Of a stretch of DNA of 64,000 bases, positions 13,746 through 24,593 are shown in pieces. The notes beneath the pieces are model-generated. The model had not been told where the DNA came from. It saw only the letters and a list, made by a program, of their open reading frames with translations, and did no database searches. Origin of the DNA: an uncultured cyanobacterium (GTDB lineage: Bacteria > Cyanobacteriota > Cyanobacteriia > Cyanobacteriales > Cyanobacteriaceae); contig CAVQBA010000004.1 in assembly GCA_963710605.1 (NCBI GenBank), positions 1,024,001 to 1,088,000 on the forward strand, read 5' to 3'. The first letter of the stretch is position 1. Every line of letters begins with the position of its first letter. The translations under genes and the position numbers were made by a program.

Positions 13746-16397
13746 ATGCAACCGACTGATCCAAATAAGTTTACCGAAATTGCTTGGGATGCCATTGTGC
13801 GATCGCAGGATATTTGCCGTGATTTTAAACATAAAAATTTAGAAGTAGAACATTTAATCTTAGCGTTACTAGAAGAAAATACGATCGCTAGCAAAATATT
13901 CGAGCATAGTGGGTTAGAAGTAACTCGCTTAGGCAAACAAATCAAAATGTTTGTCAGCCGACAACCAAAAATGTTTGATATTGCTCAGTTGTATCTAGGG
14001 CGTAGCTTAGATTTATTGTTAGACAGAGCAGAAAAATGCCGTGAAAGTTGGGATGATGAATATATTGGCGTTTCTCATATGTTGGTTGCCTTCGCTGAAG
14101 ATCAAAGATTAGGCAAAAAAACCTTACGTAATTTTAACTTAGATCCTCAGGACTTCGAGTTGAAAATTAAAGAATACAAAACTAAAGTTGAGCAGATGGA
14201 AGCCGAATCCACTGAAACAGGGGAAGAAGCGAATCAAAATATTGATAGTCAAACACCAGACTCTGAGCCTTCTTTAAATAAGTTTGGACGGGATTTGACC
14301 GCCGAAGCGGCTGATGGGAAATTAGACCCCGTTATCGGTCGTGATGATGAGGTTAGACGGATTATTCAGGTATTGTCTAGACGCTCTAAAAATAATCCTG
14401 TTTTAATAGGTGAACCCGGTGTTGGTAAAACTGCGATCGCAGAAGGATTAGCTCAAAGAATTGTTAATGGTGATGTACCAGACTCACTTAAAAACCGTCA
14501 ACTAATCTCTCTAGATATGGGTAGCTTGATTGCAGGTGCAAAATATCGAGGACAATTTGAAGAAAGACTTAGAGGTGTTTTAAAAGAAGTAATTAATTCC
14601 GATGGACAAATTATTTTGTTTATTGATGAACTACATACTGTAGTTGGTGCAGGTGCAAGAGAAGGCGGAGCGATGGATGCAGGAAACTTACTCAAACCAT
14701 TATTGGCTAGAGGTGAATTGCGTTGTATTGGGGCAACAACCTTAGATGAGTATCGCAAACATATAGAAAAAGATCCAGCTTTAGAAAGACGTTTTCAGCA
14801 AGTATATGTCAAGCAACCTAGTGTAGAAGATACCATTTCTATCCTCAGGGGGTTAAAAGAAAGATATGAAATGCACCACGGCGTAAAGATAACCGATTCA
14901 GCTTTAATTGCGGCGGCGACACTTTCTCATCGTTATATAACAGGGCGTTTTTTACCTGATAAAGCGATCGATTTAGTCGATGAAGCGGCGGCTAAACTGA
15001 AGATGGAAATTACCTCTAAACCTGTTGAATTAGAAGTACTCGATTGACGTTTGATGCAATTGCAAATGGAGCAGTTATCTCTTTCAGGAGAAGAAAATAA
15101 CGGTAAAGCTAGTCAAGAAAATTTAGAAAGAATATCAACTGAAATTGAAGGATTAAAAGTCAAACAAGAAGAATTATCGACTCAATGGCTAAAAGAAAAA
15201 GAATTACTTGATGAAATCAACGACTTAAAAGAAGAAGAAAAAGCTTTAAAAGTACAAGTTGAGCAAGCAGAAAGAGATTACGACTTAAACACCGCCGCCG
15301 AGCTTAAATACGGTAAAGTAGAAACCTTACATACAGAGATAGAAACCAAAGAAGCAAAACTAAGTGAAGTGCAATCTCAAGAAAATGCTATGCTTCGAGA
15401 AGATGTTACCGAAGACGATATAGCTGAAATTATTGCCAGTACGACGGGTATTCCTCTTAATCGTCTATTAGAAAGCGAAAGACAAAAATTACTCGAATTA
15501 GAATCTCATCTTCATCAAAGAGTTATTGGGCAAACCGAAGCAGTATCGATCGTCTCAGCGGCTATCAGAAGAGCCAGAGCGGGGATGAAAGACCCTAGTC
15601 GCCCTATTGGCTCATTTTTATTCATGGGTCCTACAGGGGTCGGTAAAACAGAATTAGCTAGAGCTTTAGCCGCTTTCTTATTCGACTCAGAAGATGCGAT
15701 GGTGAGAATTGATATGTCTGAATATATGGAAAAACATTCAGTTTCTCGTCTAATCGGCGCGCCTCCGGGGTATGTAGGTTACGAAGAAGGTGGACAATTA
15801 TCTGAAGCTGTTCGTCGTCGTCCTTATTCGGTTATCTTACTTGATGAGGTGGAAAAAGCTCATCGTGATGTTTTTAATATTTTATTACAAGTTTTGGATG
15901 ATGGTAGAATTACAGACAGTCAAGGGCGAATGGTTGATTTTCGTAATACTGTAATTGTGATGACTTCTAATATTGGTAGTGAGTATATTTTACAATTAGC
16001 AGGAGATGATGGTAATTATGAACCAATGAAAGACAAAGCGTTGCTTGCTTTACGTAAACATTTCCGCCCTGAGTTTCTCAATCGTATTGATGACTTGATT
16101 ATCTTCCACGGTTTGAACAAAGAAGAATTACGCCATATTGTTTCAATTCAACTCAAACGACTAGAAAACTTACTTTCAGAGCAAAGTATCAGTATCGAAT
16201 TAACGCCCGAAGCACAAGACTATATCGTTGATGCAGGATACGATCCAACTTACGGTGCGAGACCGATAAAACGTGCTATACAACGTGAGTTAGAAAATCC
16301 TCTGGCGACAAAAATACTAGATAATAGCTTCAGCGATGGAGACAAAGTGCTTGTTAGTCTAGAGGAGGAAGAGTTGATTTTTGCCAAAGCCGAATAA
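13746..16397 (+). CDS. clpB: ATP-dependent chaperone ClpB (in-frame TGA at 15045-15047, probably an error for CGA)
   Basis: Two AAA+ modules ([16 protein letters not shown]) and a coiled-coil M domain; both ORF-track pieces are in the same frame, and CGA restores 'DRRLMQL'. Confidence 0.93.
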
Positions 16398-16843: not shown

Positions 16844-17800
16844 TTAATCAGTATCTTTGACTCGAACAGAATTGGTAATTGCTTGTATTGACGGCATTAA
16901 TTTTTCTACTTCTTCAGCTTCTCCAGCAACAATTAATCTTACGTAAGAGGATGTATTTGCTGAAATCTTTAAATATTGCAATACAACTCCATCAGTTACT
17001 ATAGCTTCAATTAAATAACCATTTCCACCAGCGAAATTAATCGGTTTTCGATCGCTGATTATTGCATTAGTAAATCCTTCAGTATTTAGTAAAAGTCGCT
17101 CTGCAAAGGTGGCTAAGTCTGTGGTGTTTACTACCGAACCGATCGAACTCGCAATGACGATTACCGGTTTTTTTCCAGAGGAATCTGATTCGCCATTAGG
17201 AGTTAAGGCAACACCCGAACCAGAAATAGTTTGAAGTACTTGAAAAGGAGGAGCAACTTTGAATGTAAAGGGTAGCTGACTGATTTGTTCTTCTACAGAA
17301 GGAGTTGCCGAAATCTCGATCGATTCAATTGCTTTGATGACAGCTTCTTCGCCGAGACGATCGTCTGTAACATTAAATGTTAGCAAAATCGTTTTATCTC
17401 CACGTAGCAAAGCGATATACTTATCAACACTTACGTCATTAACGTTTTGAACTCCTGTGACAAAAGGAACTTGCATATTACCTACTATTACAGTCGATAC
17501 TTCTTTAACTAAAATCCCTTGACTAGCAAAGGCTTCGATCGCTGTCTGGGTGGAAGAAAATATGGTAGCAATTTCTGAATAACCTTCAAGAGGAAGTTCG
17601 GTGATGACGATACTTGAAAAATTATCCAGATTAACAAATCCTGAAAACTGTTCGGAGAGGCTAAAACCTACTGGCGGTTCTAATGATATACTCGTTCCTG
17701 GCACTGGAACTAATTGTGCGTTTGCGAAGGAGGAGAATGAAGCTACAGCAAATGCCGAACTAGTAGCGAGTAAGAATCTCTTAAGCCAATTTGTTTTCAT
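16844..17800 (-). CDS. Secreted hypothetical protein with two internally similar domains
   Basis: Signal-peptide-like N-terminus (…FANAQ); ISLEPPVGF and LPFTFKVAPPF begin two similar halves. Confidence 0.7.
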   Translation of the reverse strand: MKTNWLKRFLLATSSAFAVASFSSFANAQLVPVPGTSISLEPPVGFSLSEQFSGFVNLDNFSSIVITELPLEGYSEIATIFSSTQTAIEAFASQGILVKEVSTVIVGNMQVPFVTGVQNVNDVSVDKYIALLRGDKTILLTFNVTDDRLGEEAVIKAIESIEISATPSVEEQISQLPFTFKVAPPFQVLQTISGSGVALTPNGESDSSGKKPVIVIASSIGSVVNTTDLATFAERLLLNTEGFTNAIISDRKPINFAGGNGYLIEAIVTDGVVLQYLKISANTSSYVRLIVAGEAEEVEKLMPSIQAITNSVRVKDTD

Positions 17801-18137
17801 TTATCAATCTACCTACTAGAGACTCGGATAAATCATATCATTTTAGACCAAGTTCGTTTAATTAATTATAATAAAATCTTTACGATCGTATATTAAATGA
17901 AAAAAGTTATCGTAACTTTATTTTAATTCTTCATAATTGAATGACTAAAGTCATTACTACAAGCCCTATTTATAAGCAATCGACCGAACTTGATATTAGA
18001 CTAAATTTCTTTAATCTTTAATCTGTTTATCTTTATAATAAGTTCTGCTTCGACGATTTTCGTATCTTTGTTGGTGAGTTAAATCATCATTAACAACGAT
18101 CGTTATCACATCATCAACAGTTTCCTCTATCCATTCA

Positions 18138-18728
18138 TCATTGTCCTGAACTTCTTGGCATTCCGTATTTAGTTGAGATTCTGTTACAGTATTTTTTTGC
18201 TGATGTTTGAGAAAATTTGAAAGCATATCCTTCTTCTCCAGGGGCAATAGTTGTCCATCCCATTTCTTCCATCTTAACTTTATCTCGATAATAATCAATA
18301 GCGTCTTCGATCGCATCAAGTTCAAGAATCGATCCAAAAGAATTACCTTCACAATAGTAAAGAGCTATTTTCGTTGCATACCAAATTAGCCAAAAACCAA
18401 CAGGTGTTATATCTCTGTCTTGTATTCGGCAAGATTCTATATGCAATATCTCGACATATTCAGCCAGATTATTTGTTGGTGGATATGGATAAAGAGCAAA
18501 ATGAATCAAACCTAGAATTTGACCTTTCCAACTCAATTTAATTATACATTCACAATCCCAGTCAGCTTTTTGCCAAAACCTTTGCCAGTTACAAACCCAA
18601 TTATCTCGATTTAAAGATAGAATATCGATTTCTTTACAAGGAGTCAAACAAGCAACGGTTTGTTTCTCACTATTTTTGTTTCTAACATTAACGTGGTATT
18701 GAGGAAGTTGTTCTGGTTTATTCATCAC
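18138..18728 (-). CDS. Hypothetical protein, probable GNAT-fold acetyltransferase
   Basis: GQILGLIHF...YVEILHIES...PVGFWLIWYA...LELDAIEDAIDYY pattern resembles GNAT motifs A and B. Confidence 0.55.
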   Translation of the reverse strand: MMNKPEQLPQYHVNVRNKNSEKQTVACLTPCKEIDILSLNRDNWVCNWQRFWQKADWDCECIIKLSWKGQILGLIHFALYPYPPTNNLAEYVEILHIESCRIQDRDITPVGFWLIWYATKIALYYCEGNSFGSILELDAIEDAIDYYRDKVKMEEMGWTTIAPGEEGYAFKFSQTSAKKYCNRISTKYGMPRSSGQ

Positions 18729-18783
18729 ATATTATTTATATAATTATTTGAATTAAGTTGAGCGTAATTAAAGAATTTTTTTA

Positions 18784-21027
18784 TTACTTACTAACTAAAG
18801 GTTCGAGTATTTCTCTCTCTTCTCTAGCCAATTTCAATAAGACTCTTCTGTCTCCTTTTGTTTCTTTATATTCCACTGCTGTTTTTAATAAACGTAAAGC
18901 AATTGATAATTCTGGTTTATCTCCTACTATAGATTGCCATGTTTCTAACCAAGTACGAGCTAATTTATCGCTTACCATTTCTGACATCAAGTTAGGAATA
19001 TTATCGACAATTCCTTTACTTAAAGCAGAAATCACTAGGTGTTCATCATAAATTTTGACCAGAGTTTTAAGGCGAGATTTCCAAAGATTAATATCTGTGG
19101 TGCTATTCCAGATAATTTTGATATATTCAGTCGTATCTCCTGTATGGGATTCTTCTTCATGGGCAAAGCGATTTAGGGCATCATCTAATTCTTGAAATCC
19201 TTCTTGCCAATTGTTTAATTGAAATATTGCTTTAATACGGTCGAACCAAACGTAATAATTATCTGGTTGGATTGTGATGACTTGCTCGTAAGAAGTAATT
19301 ACTTCTTGATATCTTTTTAATTCATATAATGTAAGACCAAGATTATACCAAGCATAATAATTACTCGGATTAATTTCTATGGCTGTTTGATAATAAACAA
19401 TTGCTTCGTCATATCTTCTCAATTGATACAATAGAAATCCACAGTTATTAAACACATCATAATTATTTGAGTTGATTTGGATGGCTTTTTGATAAGAGGT
19501 AAATGCTTCGTCATATCTTTTTAAATCAAATAAGCTACAACCACGGTTATTCCAAGATTCAAAGTCATCTGGTTTAATTTTGATTACTTGTTCGTAACAA
19601 GTGATAGCTTCTTCATGTTTTTCTTGTCTATCCAATGCAACACCAAAGTTATACCAAATATTAGGATTACGATCGTCATTTTTAATTGCTTCGTAAAATA
19701 ACTCTGAAGCCTCTTCCCAATTTTCTCCTTTAGCTTGTTGAACAGCCGAAAATATTAAATTATCACTATTTTCTTTAATAGTTAAAACACGATCGATATA
19801 TTCTCTCTCTAAACAATATTCTGGCAATAACTTTAATTTTGCTTTCAACTCTTCTTCTGTGTACCAGCTCCTCAAAAAATCAATCAACAATTTAATTGGT
19901 TCACCTCGTTGCTTTTTCATTTCTAAACATATACGCATTAAAGGCTCTTGTAATTCATAAAAAGATTCTCTACCTAGTGATTCTTTTGTTACGTAACCTT
20001 TAGTTAATAAATCTTTTAACTGACTAGATGCCGTTTGATGGGTAATAAAACAACGCCTAGCAATCTCTTTAACTGATAAACGACCACCTTTATCGCAAAG
20101 CAATTCAATAATTTTTCTTTGTTGCGATGATAACCATTGCATCTTCGCTTGATAATAAGGGGTTAACTCATCTAAAGTTTGCATTACAGATTTAACTAAC
20201 TCGTCTAAAGAATTACGAGTCAAAAATTGGGAAAAAATAATATAAACTCGATGATTACCATTGGTTAAATTATGAATTGCTTGGATACGATCTTTTCCTG
20301 TAGTCGATTTAATAAAAGATTCTAATTCTCTGTCTTCTTGTACTTGAGCTATTTTACTTAATAAATTAGTAGCTTCTTCGATCGTTAATTTATCTAAATA
20401 TTGCGGAGCAAAAAAACCATAAAAAGGAGAATCTTTTTTACTAACTCCTGTAAACAAACTTTGACTGGTTGCAATAATAGTAATAAGGTTGTGATTTTGT
20501 AAATAAGCCCGAAATTGTTTTTGTCCGATATTACCTAAACCATTAAAAATTTCATCGAGGTTTTCGGTTAGTAATAGTAAAGTTCGATCGCTAATAAACT
20601 CTTTAAGTATTTTTTCGGCTTGACTAGTAGCATCTTCTGAAGATAGTTGATATAAAGATTCAACTTCAGTTTGTAACGTCTTTTGGTAATCTTGTGGATA
20701 TTCAATCTCTAAAGCCTTAAATATCCTCAGTAGTAAATCTAACCACGAACTAACTCCCCATTCTTCTTCTTTGAGCCAAGCAATTAATAACTTATCTTGT
20801 AAATCTGTTTGACTTTTAAGGCGGTGATAAGTTAGAGCAATGGTATGAGTTTTGCCAATACCTCTCATGCCAATCAATAAACGAAAATGTTTATTAGCGG
20901 TTTCGGCACTTTCACGAACTGATTCGATTAAATCTGCTACTAATTTATGTCTTTGCACAAATATAGCTTCTAAAGTAGCTGAAGACATCAAGCTGGGGGT
21001 AAAACTGGAAAGAAAGTTGTTATTCAT
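18784..21027 (-). CDS. STAND/AAA-like ATPase with winged HTH, TPR repeats and a C-terminal helical domain
   Basis: Walker A GMRGIGKT, Walker B region LLLLTENLDE, wHTH LSVKEIARRCFITHQTASSQLKDL, ~5 TPRs (WYNFGVAL, WNNRGCSL, WYNLGLTL). Confidence 0.85.
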   Translation of the reverse strand: MNNNFLSSFTPSLMSSATLEAIFVQRHKLVADLIESVRESAETANKHFRLLIGMRGIGKTHTIALTYHRLKSQTDLQDKLLIAWLKEEEWGVSSWLDLLLRIFKALEIEYPQDYQKTLQTEVESLYQLSSEDATSQAEKILKEFISDRTLLLLTENLDEIFNGLGNIGQKQFRAYLQNHNLITIIATSQSLFTGVSKKDSPFYGFFAPQYLDKLTIEEATNLLSKIAQVQEDRELESFIKSTTGKDRIQAIHNLTNGNHRVYIIFSQFLTRNSLDELVKSVMQTLDELTPYYQAKMQWLSSQQRKIIELLCDKGGRLSVKEIARRCFITHQTASSQLKDLLTKGYVTKESLGRESFYELQEPLMRICLEMKKQRGEPIKLLIDFLRSWYTEEELKAKLKLLPEYCLEREYIDRVLTIKENSDNLIFSAVQQAKGENWEEASELFYEAIKNDDRNPNIWYNFGVALDRQEKHEEAITCYEQVIKIKPDDFESWNNRGCSLFDLKRYDEAFTSYQKAIQINSNNYDVFNNCGFLLYQLRRYDEAIVYYQTAIEINPSNYYAWYNLGLTLYELKRYQEVITSYEQVITIQPDNYYVWFDRIKAIFQLNNWQEGFQELDDALNRFAHEEESHTGDTTEYIKIIWNSTTDINLWKSRLKTLVKIYDEHLVISALSKGIVDNIPNLMSEMVSDKLARTWLETWQSIVGDKPELSIALRLLKTAVEYKETKGDRRVLLKLAREEREILEPLVSK

Positions 21028-21040
21028 AGTAATAAATTCT

Positions 21041-21202
21041 GTAGGGGTGCAAGGTTTGCACCCTTAATATGACAAGATAGAAAATTTTGGTTGATGAGGT
21101 TATTTATGGTTTTGGGTTGAATGATATTTGGGTTGAATGATATTTGGGTTGAATGATATTTGGGTTGAATGATATTTGGGTTGAATGATATTCAACCCCT
21201 AC
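21041..21202. repeat. Inverted REP pair with a 5x16-bp tandem array
   Basis: GTAGGGGTGCAAGGTTTGCACCCT (21041-21064); (TTTGGGTTGAATGATA)x5 at 21111-21190 ending in the hairpin GGGTTGAAT-GAT-ATTCAACCC-CTAC. Confidence 0.9.
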
Positions 21203-21220
21203 GAAAGAATCTTGTATTGG

Positions 21221-22363
21221 TTATAATCCTCTCGATAACTCCCAATATTTTTGAACTATTTGATAACGAAATCCGTAAGTTTTACCCTGCCCAATTAGAT
21301 AATAATCTTTGAGTAATAATCTTAAAATGTCTCGTGTTGTTTCCTTGTCTGCCGTCTCGTTATCTAAAGCTAATCTGTTGTACAAATCCTGAAAAGATAA
21401 AGCTGTTTCGATCGCTAAAATATCTAAAATATTGAGGGCGTATGTTCGTTTTTCTGATTCGTAGTAATTATCAATTCTGTCACGATAATGATCCATTTTC
21501 CAAGGGTTGAGAGGATTAAGCAACGAATTATTAACTGCTTGTGTGACAGTATCACAATTTATTTCACCATCCATAAATTTAAGCTCACTTATTAAATGAT
21601 GAATATAAAAGGGAATACGATCGACTGATTTAGCAATTTCTTGAGCTATGATTTGAGTATCATTACTTTGAATCTTTTCTCCTTCAATCAAACTAGTTGC
21701 TAAGTTGATTGCATCTGTTGAAGATAAAGGTGGTACATCGATCGGATACATATCGTTAGTTGGCTCGTTACTATAGCCTTTTTGCTGTAATTGTTTCACC
21801 ACATGATGCAAACCAATAGAGCCTGTAAATACCATCCTGATATTAGGATAAGTTTGACGAAGCGATCGTAATGTATCTAAAACTTCCATTGCCAATTCAT
21901 CGCCAATATTATTAAGCATATAGGGCATCTCATCCCAAAGAAAAATTACCTGACGCTCTTGATTTGTAACTAAATCTTCGATCGTTTTGGTTAATAATGT
22001 TTTCCAATGAGTAGCGGCAATTTTAGGAAACTTAAAACCACTAAATTCAATCCCTTCTAAATTGCTCACAAAATCTCTAACCCGTCTGGCTTTACCTTTT
22101 TTACTAAGATACTTTTCTACATCTAGCCAAATTAATTCTACAAACTCAATAGGCGATCGTACACCTTCCAAATCTCGATAAACTGTTAATTTACTCTCCT
22201 CTACTTCTGCTTGCATCTTCTTAATGACGGTGGTTTTACCCATACGTCTTTCGGCACTTAGGATTATGCTTTGCTGTTCCAATTTTTGCCAGATTTGAGC
22301 AATTAACTTGTCTCTCCCAATTACGTTTTGAGGTGCAACAATTCCCCCTGGATTAGCTTTCAT
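21221..22363 (-). CDS. Stand-alone STAND/AAA-like (archaeal ATPase-type) ATP-binding protein
   Basis: VIGRD, Walker A SAERRMGKTT, Walker B IFLWDE, MVFTGSIGL, C-terminal winged-helix-like region. Confidence 0.85.
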   Translation of the reverse strand: MKANPGGIVAPQNVIGRDKLIAQIWQKLEQQSIILSAERRMGKTTVIKKMQAEVEESKLTVYRDLEGVRSPIEFVELIWLDVEKYLSKKGKARRVRDFVSNLEGIEFSGFKFPKIAATHWKTLLTKTIEDLVTNQERQVIFLWDEMPYMLNNIGDELAMEVLDTLRSLRQTYPNIRMVFTGSIGLHHVVKQLQQKGYSNEPTNDMYPIDVPPLSSTDAINLATSLIEGEKIQSNDTQIIAQEIAKSVDRIPFYIHHLISELKFMDGEINCDTVTQAVNNSLLNPLNPWKMDHYRDRIDNYYESEKRTYALNILDILAIETALSFQDLYNRLALDNETADKETTRDILRLLLKDYYLIGQGKTYGFRYQIVQKYWELSRGL

Positions 22364-22607
22364 TTTTTTGTACGATCAAATTAATATACGTTATTTTTAT
22401 TGTACGTTATTTTAAACGTATTAATAAAATTTTGAGTAAAATGAACCGATTGACGATCTATTTAAAAGTCTCTTTTTGATAAGGGGAGAAACACGAGGGG
22501 TTGTATTTAGGAGAAAAAACGATCGTATTTGAGCTACTTACATCAACCAAAACTCATCTTCTAATTTGAGTTATAATCAATTTTGGTTGCTAATCAAAAT
22601 ATAAAGA

Positions 22608-23452: not shown

Positions 23453-24593
23453 ATGTATTTGGAGCAAATCAAATTAAGTTATTTTCGTAACTACATAGAA
23501 GAAACAATTAACTTTGATAGCAATAAAATAATTATCTTAGGCGAAAATGCTCAAGGAAAATCTAATTTATTAGAAGCAATTCAATTATTATCCACTCTTA
23601 AAAGCTACCGCACCAGTAAAGACCAAGATTTAGTTTATCAAGATAGGTTATACGCCAAGATAAACGCTGAAGTGAAAAAAAAATATTCTAATTACAATTT
23701 AGGAATTAAAATTCCTCACAAAGGAAGAAAACAACTTGATGTCAATCAAGAAAAAAAATCACGTCAAATAGATTTTTTAGGAATAGTTAATACGGTATCA
23801 TTTTCTAGTATAGATTTAGATTTAGTCAGAGGAACTCCCGAATATAGAAGAAATTGGGTTGATAATTTGTTAATTCAATTAGAACCTGTTTATGCTTATA
23901 TTCTTAAACAATATCAACAAATATTGAAACAAAGAAATGCACTTTTAAAACAGCTTAAAAAACAACAAGTTGACAAATACGATCGTACTTTATCTGATGT
24001 GGCTAAAATACAACTAACAATTTGGGATGAAAAACTGGTAGAAACAGCCTGTAGAGTAACTAGAAGAAGAAATAGAGTTTTACAAAAACTAGAACCTTTA
24101 GCTAAATTTTGGCATCAGCAAATCAGTAATAATCAAGAACAATTAGGATTAATTTATCTTCCTAATGTTGAGTATCATCAAGATGATTTGGCAAAAATTA
24201 AAATGCAAATAGCGATCGCAATAGAAGAAAAACGCTCAGCAGAATTAGCTTTAGGAACAACATTGGTAGGCACCTCATCGTGATGATGTACAATTTATTG
24301 TTGATCACATTCCTGCTAAAAATTATGGCTCGCAAGGGCAACAACGAACCTTGGTTTTATCTTTGAAATTAGCTGAACTACAATTGATTGAAGAAATAAT
24401 TGGTGAACCACCTTTATTGCTACTAGATGATGTGATGGCAGAATTAGACTTAAAAAGACAACAGCAACTGCTTGATTCAATTGGTAATCGTTTTCAAACT
24501 GTAATTACAACTACTCATCTGAATTATTTTGAAGAACAATTGTTAAAGCAATCACAAATCTTTCAGGTTAAAAAAGGCAAGATTAGTCTTTAA
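23453..24593 (+). CDS. recF: DNA replication/repair protein RecF (apparent +1 frameshift at 24271)
   Basis: [35 protein letters not shown]; removing C24271 restores GTTLVGPHRDD. Confidence 0.93.

Follow-up and report, generated by a model that had tools for sequence, protein, structure and literature searches.

The window analysed here, a stretch of 64,000 nucleotides from an uncultured cyanobacterium (contig CAVQBA010000004.1, positions 1,024,001–1,088,000), carries on its minus strand two adjacent ATPase genes, designated A and B. We give an even chance to a model in which A and B constitute a mobile, self-contained two-gene cassette: a self-regulated, ATP-driven switch with an architecture like that of the origin recognition complex (ORC)/Cdc6 proteins, related to the signal transduction ATPases with numerous domains (STAND), whose output is DNA binding or oligomerization. 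The model is carried by the observed paralogy of the two genes, their linkage, the conservation of their motifs, and a set of conserved repeats before gene A that is unique in the host genome; the heteromer, the repeat-binding protein, the sensing step and the role are what we infer. The principal features are:

21221 to 22363, minus strand: gene A, 380 amino acids (aa) from an ATG start in the list of open reading frames (ORFs); nucleoside triphosphatase (NTPase), helical lid and C-terminal winged helix (about residues 290–380).
18784 to 21027, minus strand: gene B, 747 aa from an ATG start in the same list.
20158 to 21027, minus strand: B residues 1–290, NTPase and lid, paralogous to A.
19933 to 20151, minus strand: B residues about 293–365, ArsR/SmtB/MarR-like winged helix-turn-helix (wHTH).
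19258 to 19755, minus strand: B residues about 425–590, tetratricopeptide repeat (TPR) array, with 4–5 repeats here.
18784 to 19227, minus strand: B residues about 601–747 and the stop codon, helical C-terminal domain without a family match.
22371 to 22420, minus strand: putative promoter-operator, three 16-bp direct repeats and an inverted TACGTT, ending 8 nucleotides before the ATG of A.

Linkage of the two genes was assessed in two samples: 151 genomes of the same order, with 14 loci fetched around A homologs, and a wide sample with one genome per species, comprising the best 80 of 228 loci and selected with peptide patterns from the short form of A, toward which it is biased. B lies directly 3′ of A in 9 of the 14 order-level loci, both genes being degraded in one of the nine, and the N-terminal module of B lies directly downstream of A in 73 of the 80 wide-sample loci. 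A gap of −3 to 686 nucleotides, often 3–9, separates the two genes in these 73 loci. Six of the seven loci without B contain at most 417 nucleotides of DNA after A, and the seventh (L073) keeps a 43-residue remnant of the B C-terminal domain. These counts, together with the paralogy described below, support the earlier reading of the two co-oriented ATPases as a pair, which is conserved.

Within the order, A occurs in 18 of the 151 genomes (14 strongly, besides the genome of the window itself). It was found in none of the six same-family genomes, and the cassette DNA was not found in one same-genus genome that is only 67% complete, in keeping with the "accessory" label that the region had received in a preliminary description. 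The wide sample includes 17 loci that are non-cyanobacterial by name, from Planctomycetota, Verrucomicrobia, Gamma- and Betaproteobacteria, Entotheonella and Gemmatimonadaceae. Distant relatives (23–24% identity) are present on 4 of 72,556 plasmid records (E ≤ 1e-10), and both plasmid loci that were opened, from Moraxella and Clostridium, hold an overlapping A-like and B-like pair in the order of the cassette (E values of 1e-37 and 2e-31 for the A-like and 7e-53 and 5e-43 for the B-like proteins, respectively). The family is large, with 2150 hits for A and 5055 representatives of the B-type module at 50% identity clustering (3047 at E ≤ 1e-30), and its members bear only generic source names: "AAA family ATPase", "ATP-binding protein" or "tetratricopeptide repeat protein". 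With this patchy spread, the A–B pair looks horizontally transferred, as a mobile accessory module.

Gene A encodes an NTPase that ends with a winged helix. Pfam assigns AAA_22 (PF13401) at E 8.3e-7 and 29.8 bits, above the cut-off of 27, with ATPase_2 (PF01637; 20 bits, cut-off 33.2) and nSTAND6 below threshold. Motif conservation was followed in 33 paired A and B sequences. The Walker A of A, AERRMGKT, lies within the variant SAERRMGKT quoted previously; E38, R39, R40, G42 and K43 are present in all 33 sequences, giving a family P-loop consensus of AERRxGK[TS], and the Walker B motif W-D144-E145 is likewise found in 33 of 33. Also conserved are T180-G-S-I-G-L-H186 and an N-terminal peptide (residues 2–13) in which N4 is nearly invariant and P5, G6 and G7 are invariant.

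The AlphaFold model of A has a predicted local distance difference test (pLDDT) score of 77.3 and a predicted template modeling (pTM) score of 0.49, with the P-loop region (residues 32–45) below 50. It best matches archaeal SSO1545 (2fna; Foldseek E 5.9e-8; VIA Z 14.1 and root-mean-square deviation (rmsd) 13.2 Å over 291 aligned residues), followed by PABY2304 (2qen; Foldseek E 1.9e-7, VIA Z 12.9), with plant nucleotide-binding leucine-rich-repeat receptors (NLRs; Z 11–12), Orc1/Cdc6 and ORC subunits, RuvB and MalT (8bob) ranked lower, and its residues 290–380 match winged helices of the MarR/ArsR/Fur type (Z about 10). Template modeling (TM) scores, 0.36–0.38, are low and the rmsd is high, reflecting differing domain orientations, and the family placement of A therefore stands at the level of architecture. 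A profile of A searched against PDB sequences returned nothing meaningful (best E 0.05), and an ESM Atlas search with A returned only unnamed "AAA family ATPase" clusters. The NTPase–lid–winged-helix (nucleotide-binding oligomerization domain, NOD) module of STAND NTPases is present, being covered by the structural matches of A and by the alignment of B residues 1–415. The same arrangement also defines ORC/Cdc6-type AAA+ proteins and does not separate STAND from ORC.

Gene B combines such a module with a sensor-like region. Its NTPase matches AAA_16 below threshold (residues 29–159; 20.9 bits, cut-off 32.6), its wHTH (residues 300–355) matches MarR_2 (1.8e-9) and HTH_24 (1.1e-7), and its TPRs (residues 425–590) match TPR_1 at E 4.2e-41; residues 600–747 have no Pfam match. 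Against PDB sequences, a profile of the N-terminal half found SmtB (E 2.5e-5), AspA, CzrA and CadC over residues about 293–365 and GerE (1fse) only at E 0.29, and neither LuxR/GerE nor Trans_reg_C nor BTAD is among the 25 best of 49 Pfam families for B. The sole helix-turn-helix (HTH) of B is the MarR/ArsR-like wHTH after the NTPase. The C-terminal domain is kept in homologs at 26–78% identity; an ESM Atlas search with it yielded scores of at most 0.84 and no lead. From the N-terminal module to this domain, B spans 499–1258 aa (median 882, 54 loci), and because this span varies the TPR array is the variable part of the protein. The repeat sensor expected of STAND NTPases is accordingly present in B as TPRs and missing from A, which ends with its winged helix.

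The Walker A of B is intact (G53-x-R-G56-x-G58-K59-T60; family consensus GxRGxGK[TS]H), and R173 is invariant. Its Walker B deviates, reading hhhh-[V/T/I/A/M]154-E155-N156 in the family and LLLLTENLDE in the window, and the usual Asp occurs in none of the 33 sequences. Two statements of the preliminary description on B hold up well against these data: the atypical Walker B (TENLDE), and the reading of B as an ATPase–wHTH–TPR protein with a distinct C-terminal helical domain, borne out by Pfam and by conservation in homologs.

BLASTP finds no significant alignment between A and B, and their relationship is seen only by profile–profile comparison. An hhalign run with a profile of 30 A homologs against a profile of B(1–415) gave a probability of 87.6% and E 3.5e-6 over 292 columns, aligning A 14–356 with B 23–346. 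As judged by these profiles, A and the N-terminal half of B are distant paralogs, and B is an A-like NTPase–lid–winged-helix module to which a TPR array and a C-terminal domain are added.

We then considered the predicted complex of A with B(1–415), each supplied as a 33-sequence alignment. Its interface score, ipSAE, is 0.65 (runs of 0.62, 0.65 and 0.66), as against 0.00 for the best of three controls. Of 157 solved complexes, 116 reach that mark, compared with 2 of 215 mismatched pairs; this calibration holds only roughly with custom alignments. At least 92% of contacts recur between runs, and the pLDDT of the partner is at least 76. In the modeled interface, A residues 2–13, 44 and 144–145 meet B residues 28–48, 167–180 and 203–210: the conserved N-terminal peptide of A goes into B 28–48, and T44 and D144/E145 of A adjoin B 167–180, the stretch with the invariant R173. 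Such an arrangement is that of a composite AAA+ ATP site to which the neighboring subunit contributes an arginine, and the prediction supports A–B binding.

Upstream of A, three CGTA cores at 22406–22403, 22390–22387 and 22374–22371 (TAACGTACAAT / TAACGTATATT / GATCGTACAAA) are accompanied by an inverted TACGTT at 22420–22415. Their consensus, TTRACGTACRWT followed by an A-rich spacer, is common to A upstream regions from several phyla, and the core-to-core distance is 16 nucleotides in 53 of 68 successive intervals. Two or more ACGTA occur in 37 of 75 A upstream regions versus 0 of 74 coding controls. In 50 of the 80 loci, the exact CGTA-N12-CGTA is found in the 150 nucleotides upstream of A; six matches fall elsewhere, in 915,105 bases, four of them in two loci where the N-terminus of A seems displaced. 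The triple-repeat pattern occurs once in the window (0 matches in 100 shuffles) and once in the whole 3.93-Mb genome. The only other AT-rich two-site match in the genome (C6:230867) lies inside a coding region and was judged a chance occurrence. CGTA pairs 16 nucleotides apart were found neither in the A–B spacer of the window nor in the longer A–B spacers of 21 related loci. In the XRE-fused A genes of genus g39, introduced below, CGTA repeats are missing and a different conserved upstream inverted repeat is present (AATCTTAAAGCAA ... TTGCTTATGAT), and in the distant plasmid pairs the repeats differ again and surround a TTGAC box. Different protein clades thus carry different cis-elements, a correlation that would be expected if the cassette's own proteins read the site.

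No nuclease, protease, SIR2, TIR or like effector domain was detected in A or B with Pfam and PADLOC, consistent with the earlier statement that neither ATPase has a recognizable effector. The B-type module starts at residues 1–47 in all of the 150 best among the 5055 representatives, and therefore no effector is fused at the N-terminus. In the mechanism that we propose, A and B would form an AAA+-style heteromer in which A, with intact Walker A and B motifs, would be the hydrolyzing subunit, and B, with an intact P-loop and no Walker B Asp, would set its invariant Arg173 region against the nucleotide site of A. The ArsR-like wHTH of B, possibly with the winged helix of A, would bind the 16-bp direct repeats that overlap the cassette promoter, and the cassette, with this protein on its own promoter, would therefore be self-regulating. 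The variable TPR array and conserved C-terminal domain of B would bind a trigger, which would alter the nucleotide state, the oligomer and DNA binding. Because no enzyme domain is present, DNA binding or oligomerization itself is proposed to be the output.

Several points weigh against this model. Many of the 80 loci come from closely related Microcoleus and are not independent. A is not strictly dependent on B: the other five order-level loci (L021–L025, genus g39) encode a 471–473-aa form of A that bears an XRE-type HTH at its N-terminus. No B adjoins it, and none was found anywhere in these five genomes, which gave weak matches to small ArsR-like ORFs only. The XRE-fused A stands alone between housekeeping genes. 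The structure model of A is only middling in pLDDT and pTM, at 77.3 and 0.49, and falls below 50 at the P-loop. As for the complex, ipSAE is the model's own confidence, and the pass may reflect likeness to solved AAA+/ORC-like assemblies. At the operator, the exact two-site CGTA match is missing from 30 of the 80 loci; −35-like and −10-like hexamers are also present in the repeat unit, whose conservation may in part be that of the promoter. A simple promoter scan did not flag the window site and found 21 sites overall against 22.6 expected. Which of the proteins would bind the repeats is drawn from correlation. Finally, A–B coupling may be weakened in this genome by the 193 nucleotides of repeats between the genes. 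These considerations also refine two earlier proposals. A had been described as an ATPase without sensor or effector, and it does end at the winged helix with no effector domain in Pfam or PADLOC; a sensor/helper hetero-oligomer had been suggested, and the conserved pairing and the complex prediction, which passes its controls (0.65 versus 0.00), favor a hetero-oligomer. The notion of a "helper without sensor" is too simple for A, given the XRE-fused A in genomes where B was not found.

For the genomic context of the cassette, 18 diverse loci were annotated out to about 4.5 kb from the pair, 110 ORFs in all. The neighbors are mostly housekeeping or metabolic and differ at each locus, and no conserved third gene stands beside the pair in these 18 loci. 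Conflict-type sensing, of mobile elements or phage, is slightly favored over housekeeping regulation. An unlikely reading takes this further and makes the cassette a new class of effector-less NLR-like conflict or immune module, in which sensor B and its paralogous engine A, on recognizing a trigger, would assemble into an ORC-like, ATP-dependent nucleoprotein complex, and sequence-specific or spreading DNA binding would be the response, blocking transcription or replication of invader or host. In that case the cassette would correspond, in bacteria, to paired sensor/helper NLRs and would target DNA directly. Two results speak against a defense role: clear defense genes, a SpbK-like TIR gene and HerA by PADLOC, adjoin the pair in only 1 of the 18 loci, and no phage record matched A. 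The remaining PADLOC neighbor matches in these loci are generic (helicase/RecD, ABC, PLD and Uma2), and a defense-island association of the cassette clade is not evident. Among the distant plasmid pairs, the Moraxella pair adjoins QatD, transposases and a "7-cyano-7-deazaguanine synthase" gene, which we take to be the QatC-type component of Qat. Next to the Clostridium pair are DUF3800, GIY-YIG and integrase genes. At two non-cyanobacterial loci another gene follows B directly and in the same orientation: an SNF2-family helicase, ZorD/DpdE-like in PADLOC (L096:10708–14046), and a PLD-like gene (L107:7395–8120); both may be occasional added effectors.

The preliminary description did not recognize the pair as a named system, and no named-system model of PADLOC (PADLOC-DB of 2023), including those for Avs and NLR, matches A or B; A has only weak matches to PDC-S27 (2.1e-4) and PDC-S01 (1e-3), and B only generic TPR and wHTH (Csa3/CasR) matches. 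A description of the A–B cassette was not found in the open-access literature searched, which is not proof that it is unpublished. In the available portions of Kaur et al. 2020 (PMC7159879) no passage describing the pair was found, and those of a 2026 STAND survey (PMC13581612) mention MNS, nSTAND and non-defense STAND clades and not the pair. Six homolog accession numbers were not found in 6 supplementary files of that survey, whose two largest tables may hold the clade.

It is also doubtful, in our judgment, that A and B are an ordinary pair of signal-responsive transcription factors like MalT, IniR or AfsR. In such a pair, the TPR array would bind a metabolite or a protein of the host, and the oligomer formed with ATP would activate or repress unlinked chromosomal genes in addition to its own promoter. 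Known STAND regulators combine NTPase, TPR and HTH in this way; IniR is described as having an ATPase domain like SSO1545, a sensor like MalT domain III and a domain that binds DNA (PMC5760070). The mostly housekeeping or metabolic neighbors and the resemblance of the B wHTH to ArsR/SmtB repressors fit this alternative as well. It is at odds with the patchy, transfer-like spread (18 of 151 genomes in the order, none of six in the family, and plasmid copies), and no neighboring gene is conserved as a possible target. The triple repeat, moreover, stands only at the cassette promoter, the other AT-rich two-site match being inside a coding region.

A further question is whether this particular copy works as a unit. 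Beyond A and B, the locus is marked by the following feature:

21028 to 21220, no strand: A–B spacer, 193 nucleotides, with a tandem repeat and one copy of a dispersed hairpin repeat.

The spacer measures 3–21 nucleotides in most relatives. Here it contains a perfect 16-nucleotide × 5.1 tandem repeat at 21111–21192 and, at 21045–21063, a hairpin element with 22 copies in the host genome; a normally short A–B junction has been invaded by small dispersed repeats. The location between clpB and recF given earlier is correct, with the additions that both flanking genes are broken and that an extra 318-aa ORF (16844–17800, minus strand) lies between clpB and the third gene of the region, C. The clpB gene (13746–16397, plus strand) is split by an in-frame TGA at 15048–15050 (...LD*RLMQLQ...), and its best match is intact in 12 of 12 same-family genomes, 11 of them with an open frame of 878–886 aa and one (G152) with a partial match of 775 aa. 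In recF (23453–24593, plus strand), the frame is lost near 24281, giving ORFs of 276 and then 80 aa; relatives have open frames of 381–439 aa. Another ClpB-like copy, at G000:C7:65995–66753 in the same genome, likewise contains a TAG. The host genome (3.93 Mb, 7 contigs) is 84.9% complete by marker genes, and this completeness in only seven contigs, with the broken clpB and recF, suggests many broken genes or assembly errors. The two flanking genes are not adjacent in relatives, and the site is therefore not a conserved insertion point. The 318-aa ORF has no Pfam match even at relaxed threshold, no PADLOC match, and no relative in the 14 order-level loci. G+C over the region from A to C is 0.31–0.35, within the 0.26–0.40 of the 20 kb profiled around it. 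The host genome has a single copy of A and a single copy of B, 29 further B matches concerning the TPR part only. In the closest relative (L033 / L101, 78–85% identity) the cassette is decaying: its A carries a TAG and an internal deletion (residues 1–189 plus 312–380 remain), and its B is 536 aa long without the TPR array.

Against this background, A and B might be merely neighboring paralogs that act separately, or the copy in the window might be non-functional in a decaying genome, a possibility that we consider quite improbable. The XRE-fused A without B in other genomes, the broken clpB and recF, the repeats at the A–B junction and the degradation of both genes in the closest relative all fit it. 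It is opposed by the A–B complex prediction, which passed its controls, and by the linkage, which extends across phyla in 73 of 80 loci and leaves only a few bases between the genes or makes them overlap. Both ORFs, furthermore, are full-length here with all invariant motifs kept.

More improbable still is a part in the maintenance or replication control of a mobile element, in which an ORC/initiator-like ATPase pair would act on iteron-like direct repeats. Structural likeness to Orc1/Cdc6, including the heterodimer on origin DNA (2qby), the fixed 16-bp period of the direct repeats, and the distant members on plasmids suggest it. However, at E ≤ 1e-10 only the 4 of 72,556 plasmid records matched and no phage record did; in most of the 18 loci the 3.5–5 kb pair stands alone among housekeeping genes, without integrase, Rep or partition genes; and the repeats lie operator-like, directly before the start codon of A.

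Gene C had been proposed as a third component of the system, or its output:

18138 to 18728, minus strand: gene C, 196 aa from a GTG start in the ORF list, GNAT-fold protein of a conserved cyanobacterial family.

The three ORFs, their coordinates and the 55-bp gap between the B stop and the C start (18729–18783) agree with the ORF list, and A, B and C are co-oriented. That C is GNAT-like stands at the level of the fold only: its model is confident (pLDDT 94.0, pTM 0.91) and has GNATs as its best Foldseek matches, and neither Pfam nor NCBIfam nor PADLOC gave a match at E ≤ 1. With Foldseek against PDB, 50 matches reach E ≤ 0.001; the best E is 2.1e-5, TM is about 0.6 and identity 9–18%. They are led by PA3270, BH2621, PaiA and Naa10-type acetyltransferases, with a few of the listed entries only "uncharacterised". 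Relative to GNAT acetyltransferases such as PA3270 (1yre, 8gxj), C has the same fold (TM about 0.6, E 2e-5) and differs in matching no GNAT model of Pfam or NCBIfam and in its identity of 9–18%. The C family comprises 56 hits, mostly cyanobacterial, with 19 invariant residues among 46 aligned members, and conserves R105-x3-P109-V110-G111, which we take to occupy the place of the GNAT Q/R-x-x-G-x-G/A motif.

A three-gene system with C as the output of the ATPase pair is hardly credible: the co-orientation, the 55-nucleotide gap and the GNAT fold speak for it, but no C homolog occurs in the 14 + 80 loci with A relatives, C lies on a different contig from A–B in the three genomes holding both (G044, G036 and G066), and the C family, patchily spread in its own way over 19 of the 151 genomes of the order, is accompanied downstream by a conserved small ORF of its own. 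Since no C homolog was found in any of the 94 related loci, C is unlinked to the cassette and, on this comparison of loci, an unrelated passenger. The small ORF (18011–18226, minus strand; 71 aa from an internal ATG) overlaps the 3′ end of C in another frame. Its part beyond the C stop is kept in related loci (L118–L127) as W.ET.DDV.T...M[ST]H.ER; its ATG is dictated by the conserved GYAF codons of C, leaving the true start uncertain, and it has no Pfam match at relaxed threshold. This conservation suggests that C and the overlapping small ORF are a separate two-gene unit, in which the small ORF may be the partner gene of C. C copies with internal stop codons occur in 4 of the 19 C-holding genomes (G036, G129, G006 and G114), and in one public C homolog (P0128) an XRE HTH is attached, either by fusion or through mis-joining.

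The two-gene cassette remains the reading that we prefer. Its conserved cis-element, the predicted composite ATP site formed by the Walker motifs of A against Arg173 of B, and its simple two-gene structure open a large family to direct tests. As an immune or conflict module, the cassette would show how a STAND/ORC-like switch can do without an enzymatic effector; as a regulator, it would represent a new split form of MalT/AfsR logic. The three-gene reading of the window is corrected in either case, C belonging to a separate small family.

Among known systems, Avs and other bacterial NLR-like receptors share with the cassette an NTPase–winged-helix core, a variable TPR sensor and a patchy, mobile spread; the cassette differs from them in having no fused effector, no match to a PADLOC Avs/NLR model and only rare defense neighbors. 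MalT, IniR and AfsR/SARP-type STAND regulators likewise join a P-loop switch to a sensor of helical repeats and a DNA-binding domain. They are single polypeptides with a LuxR- or OmpR-type DNA-binding domain at one end, whereas the cassette has its wHTH after the NTPase, divides the switch between two paralogous genes, and has no linked target operon. The archaeal PF01637 proteins SSO1545 (2fna) and PABY2304 (2qen), similar in size at about 350 aa, resemble A over nearly its whole length in NTPase, lid and winged helix, although the PF01637 sequence match of A is below the Pfam cut-off (20 bits versus 33.2). Their function is not known, and they hence give no clue to the role of A; we know of no paralogous TPR-bearing partner or operator repeats for either. 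The archaeal Orc1/Cdc6 heterodimer on origin DNA (2qby) ranks third for A in Foldseek (E 2.2e-6, TM 0.29), below these PF01637 proteins. No origin or replication genes were found near A–B in the window and the 18 loci, and B adds a TPR array and an extra C-terminal domain. With Orc1/Cdc6 the cassette shares the order of an AAA+ module followed by a DNA-binding winged helix and, in the proposed mechanism, the joint action of two paralogs on repeated DNA.

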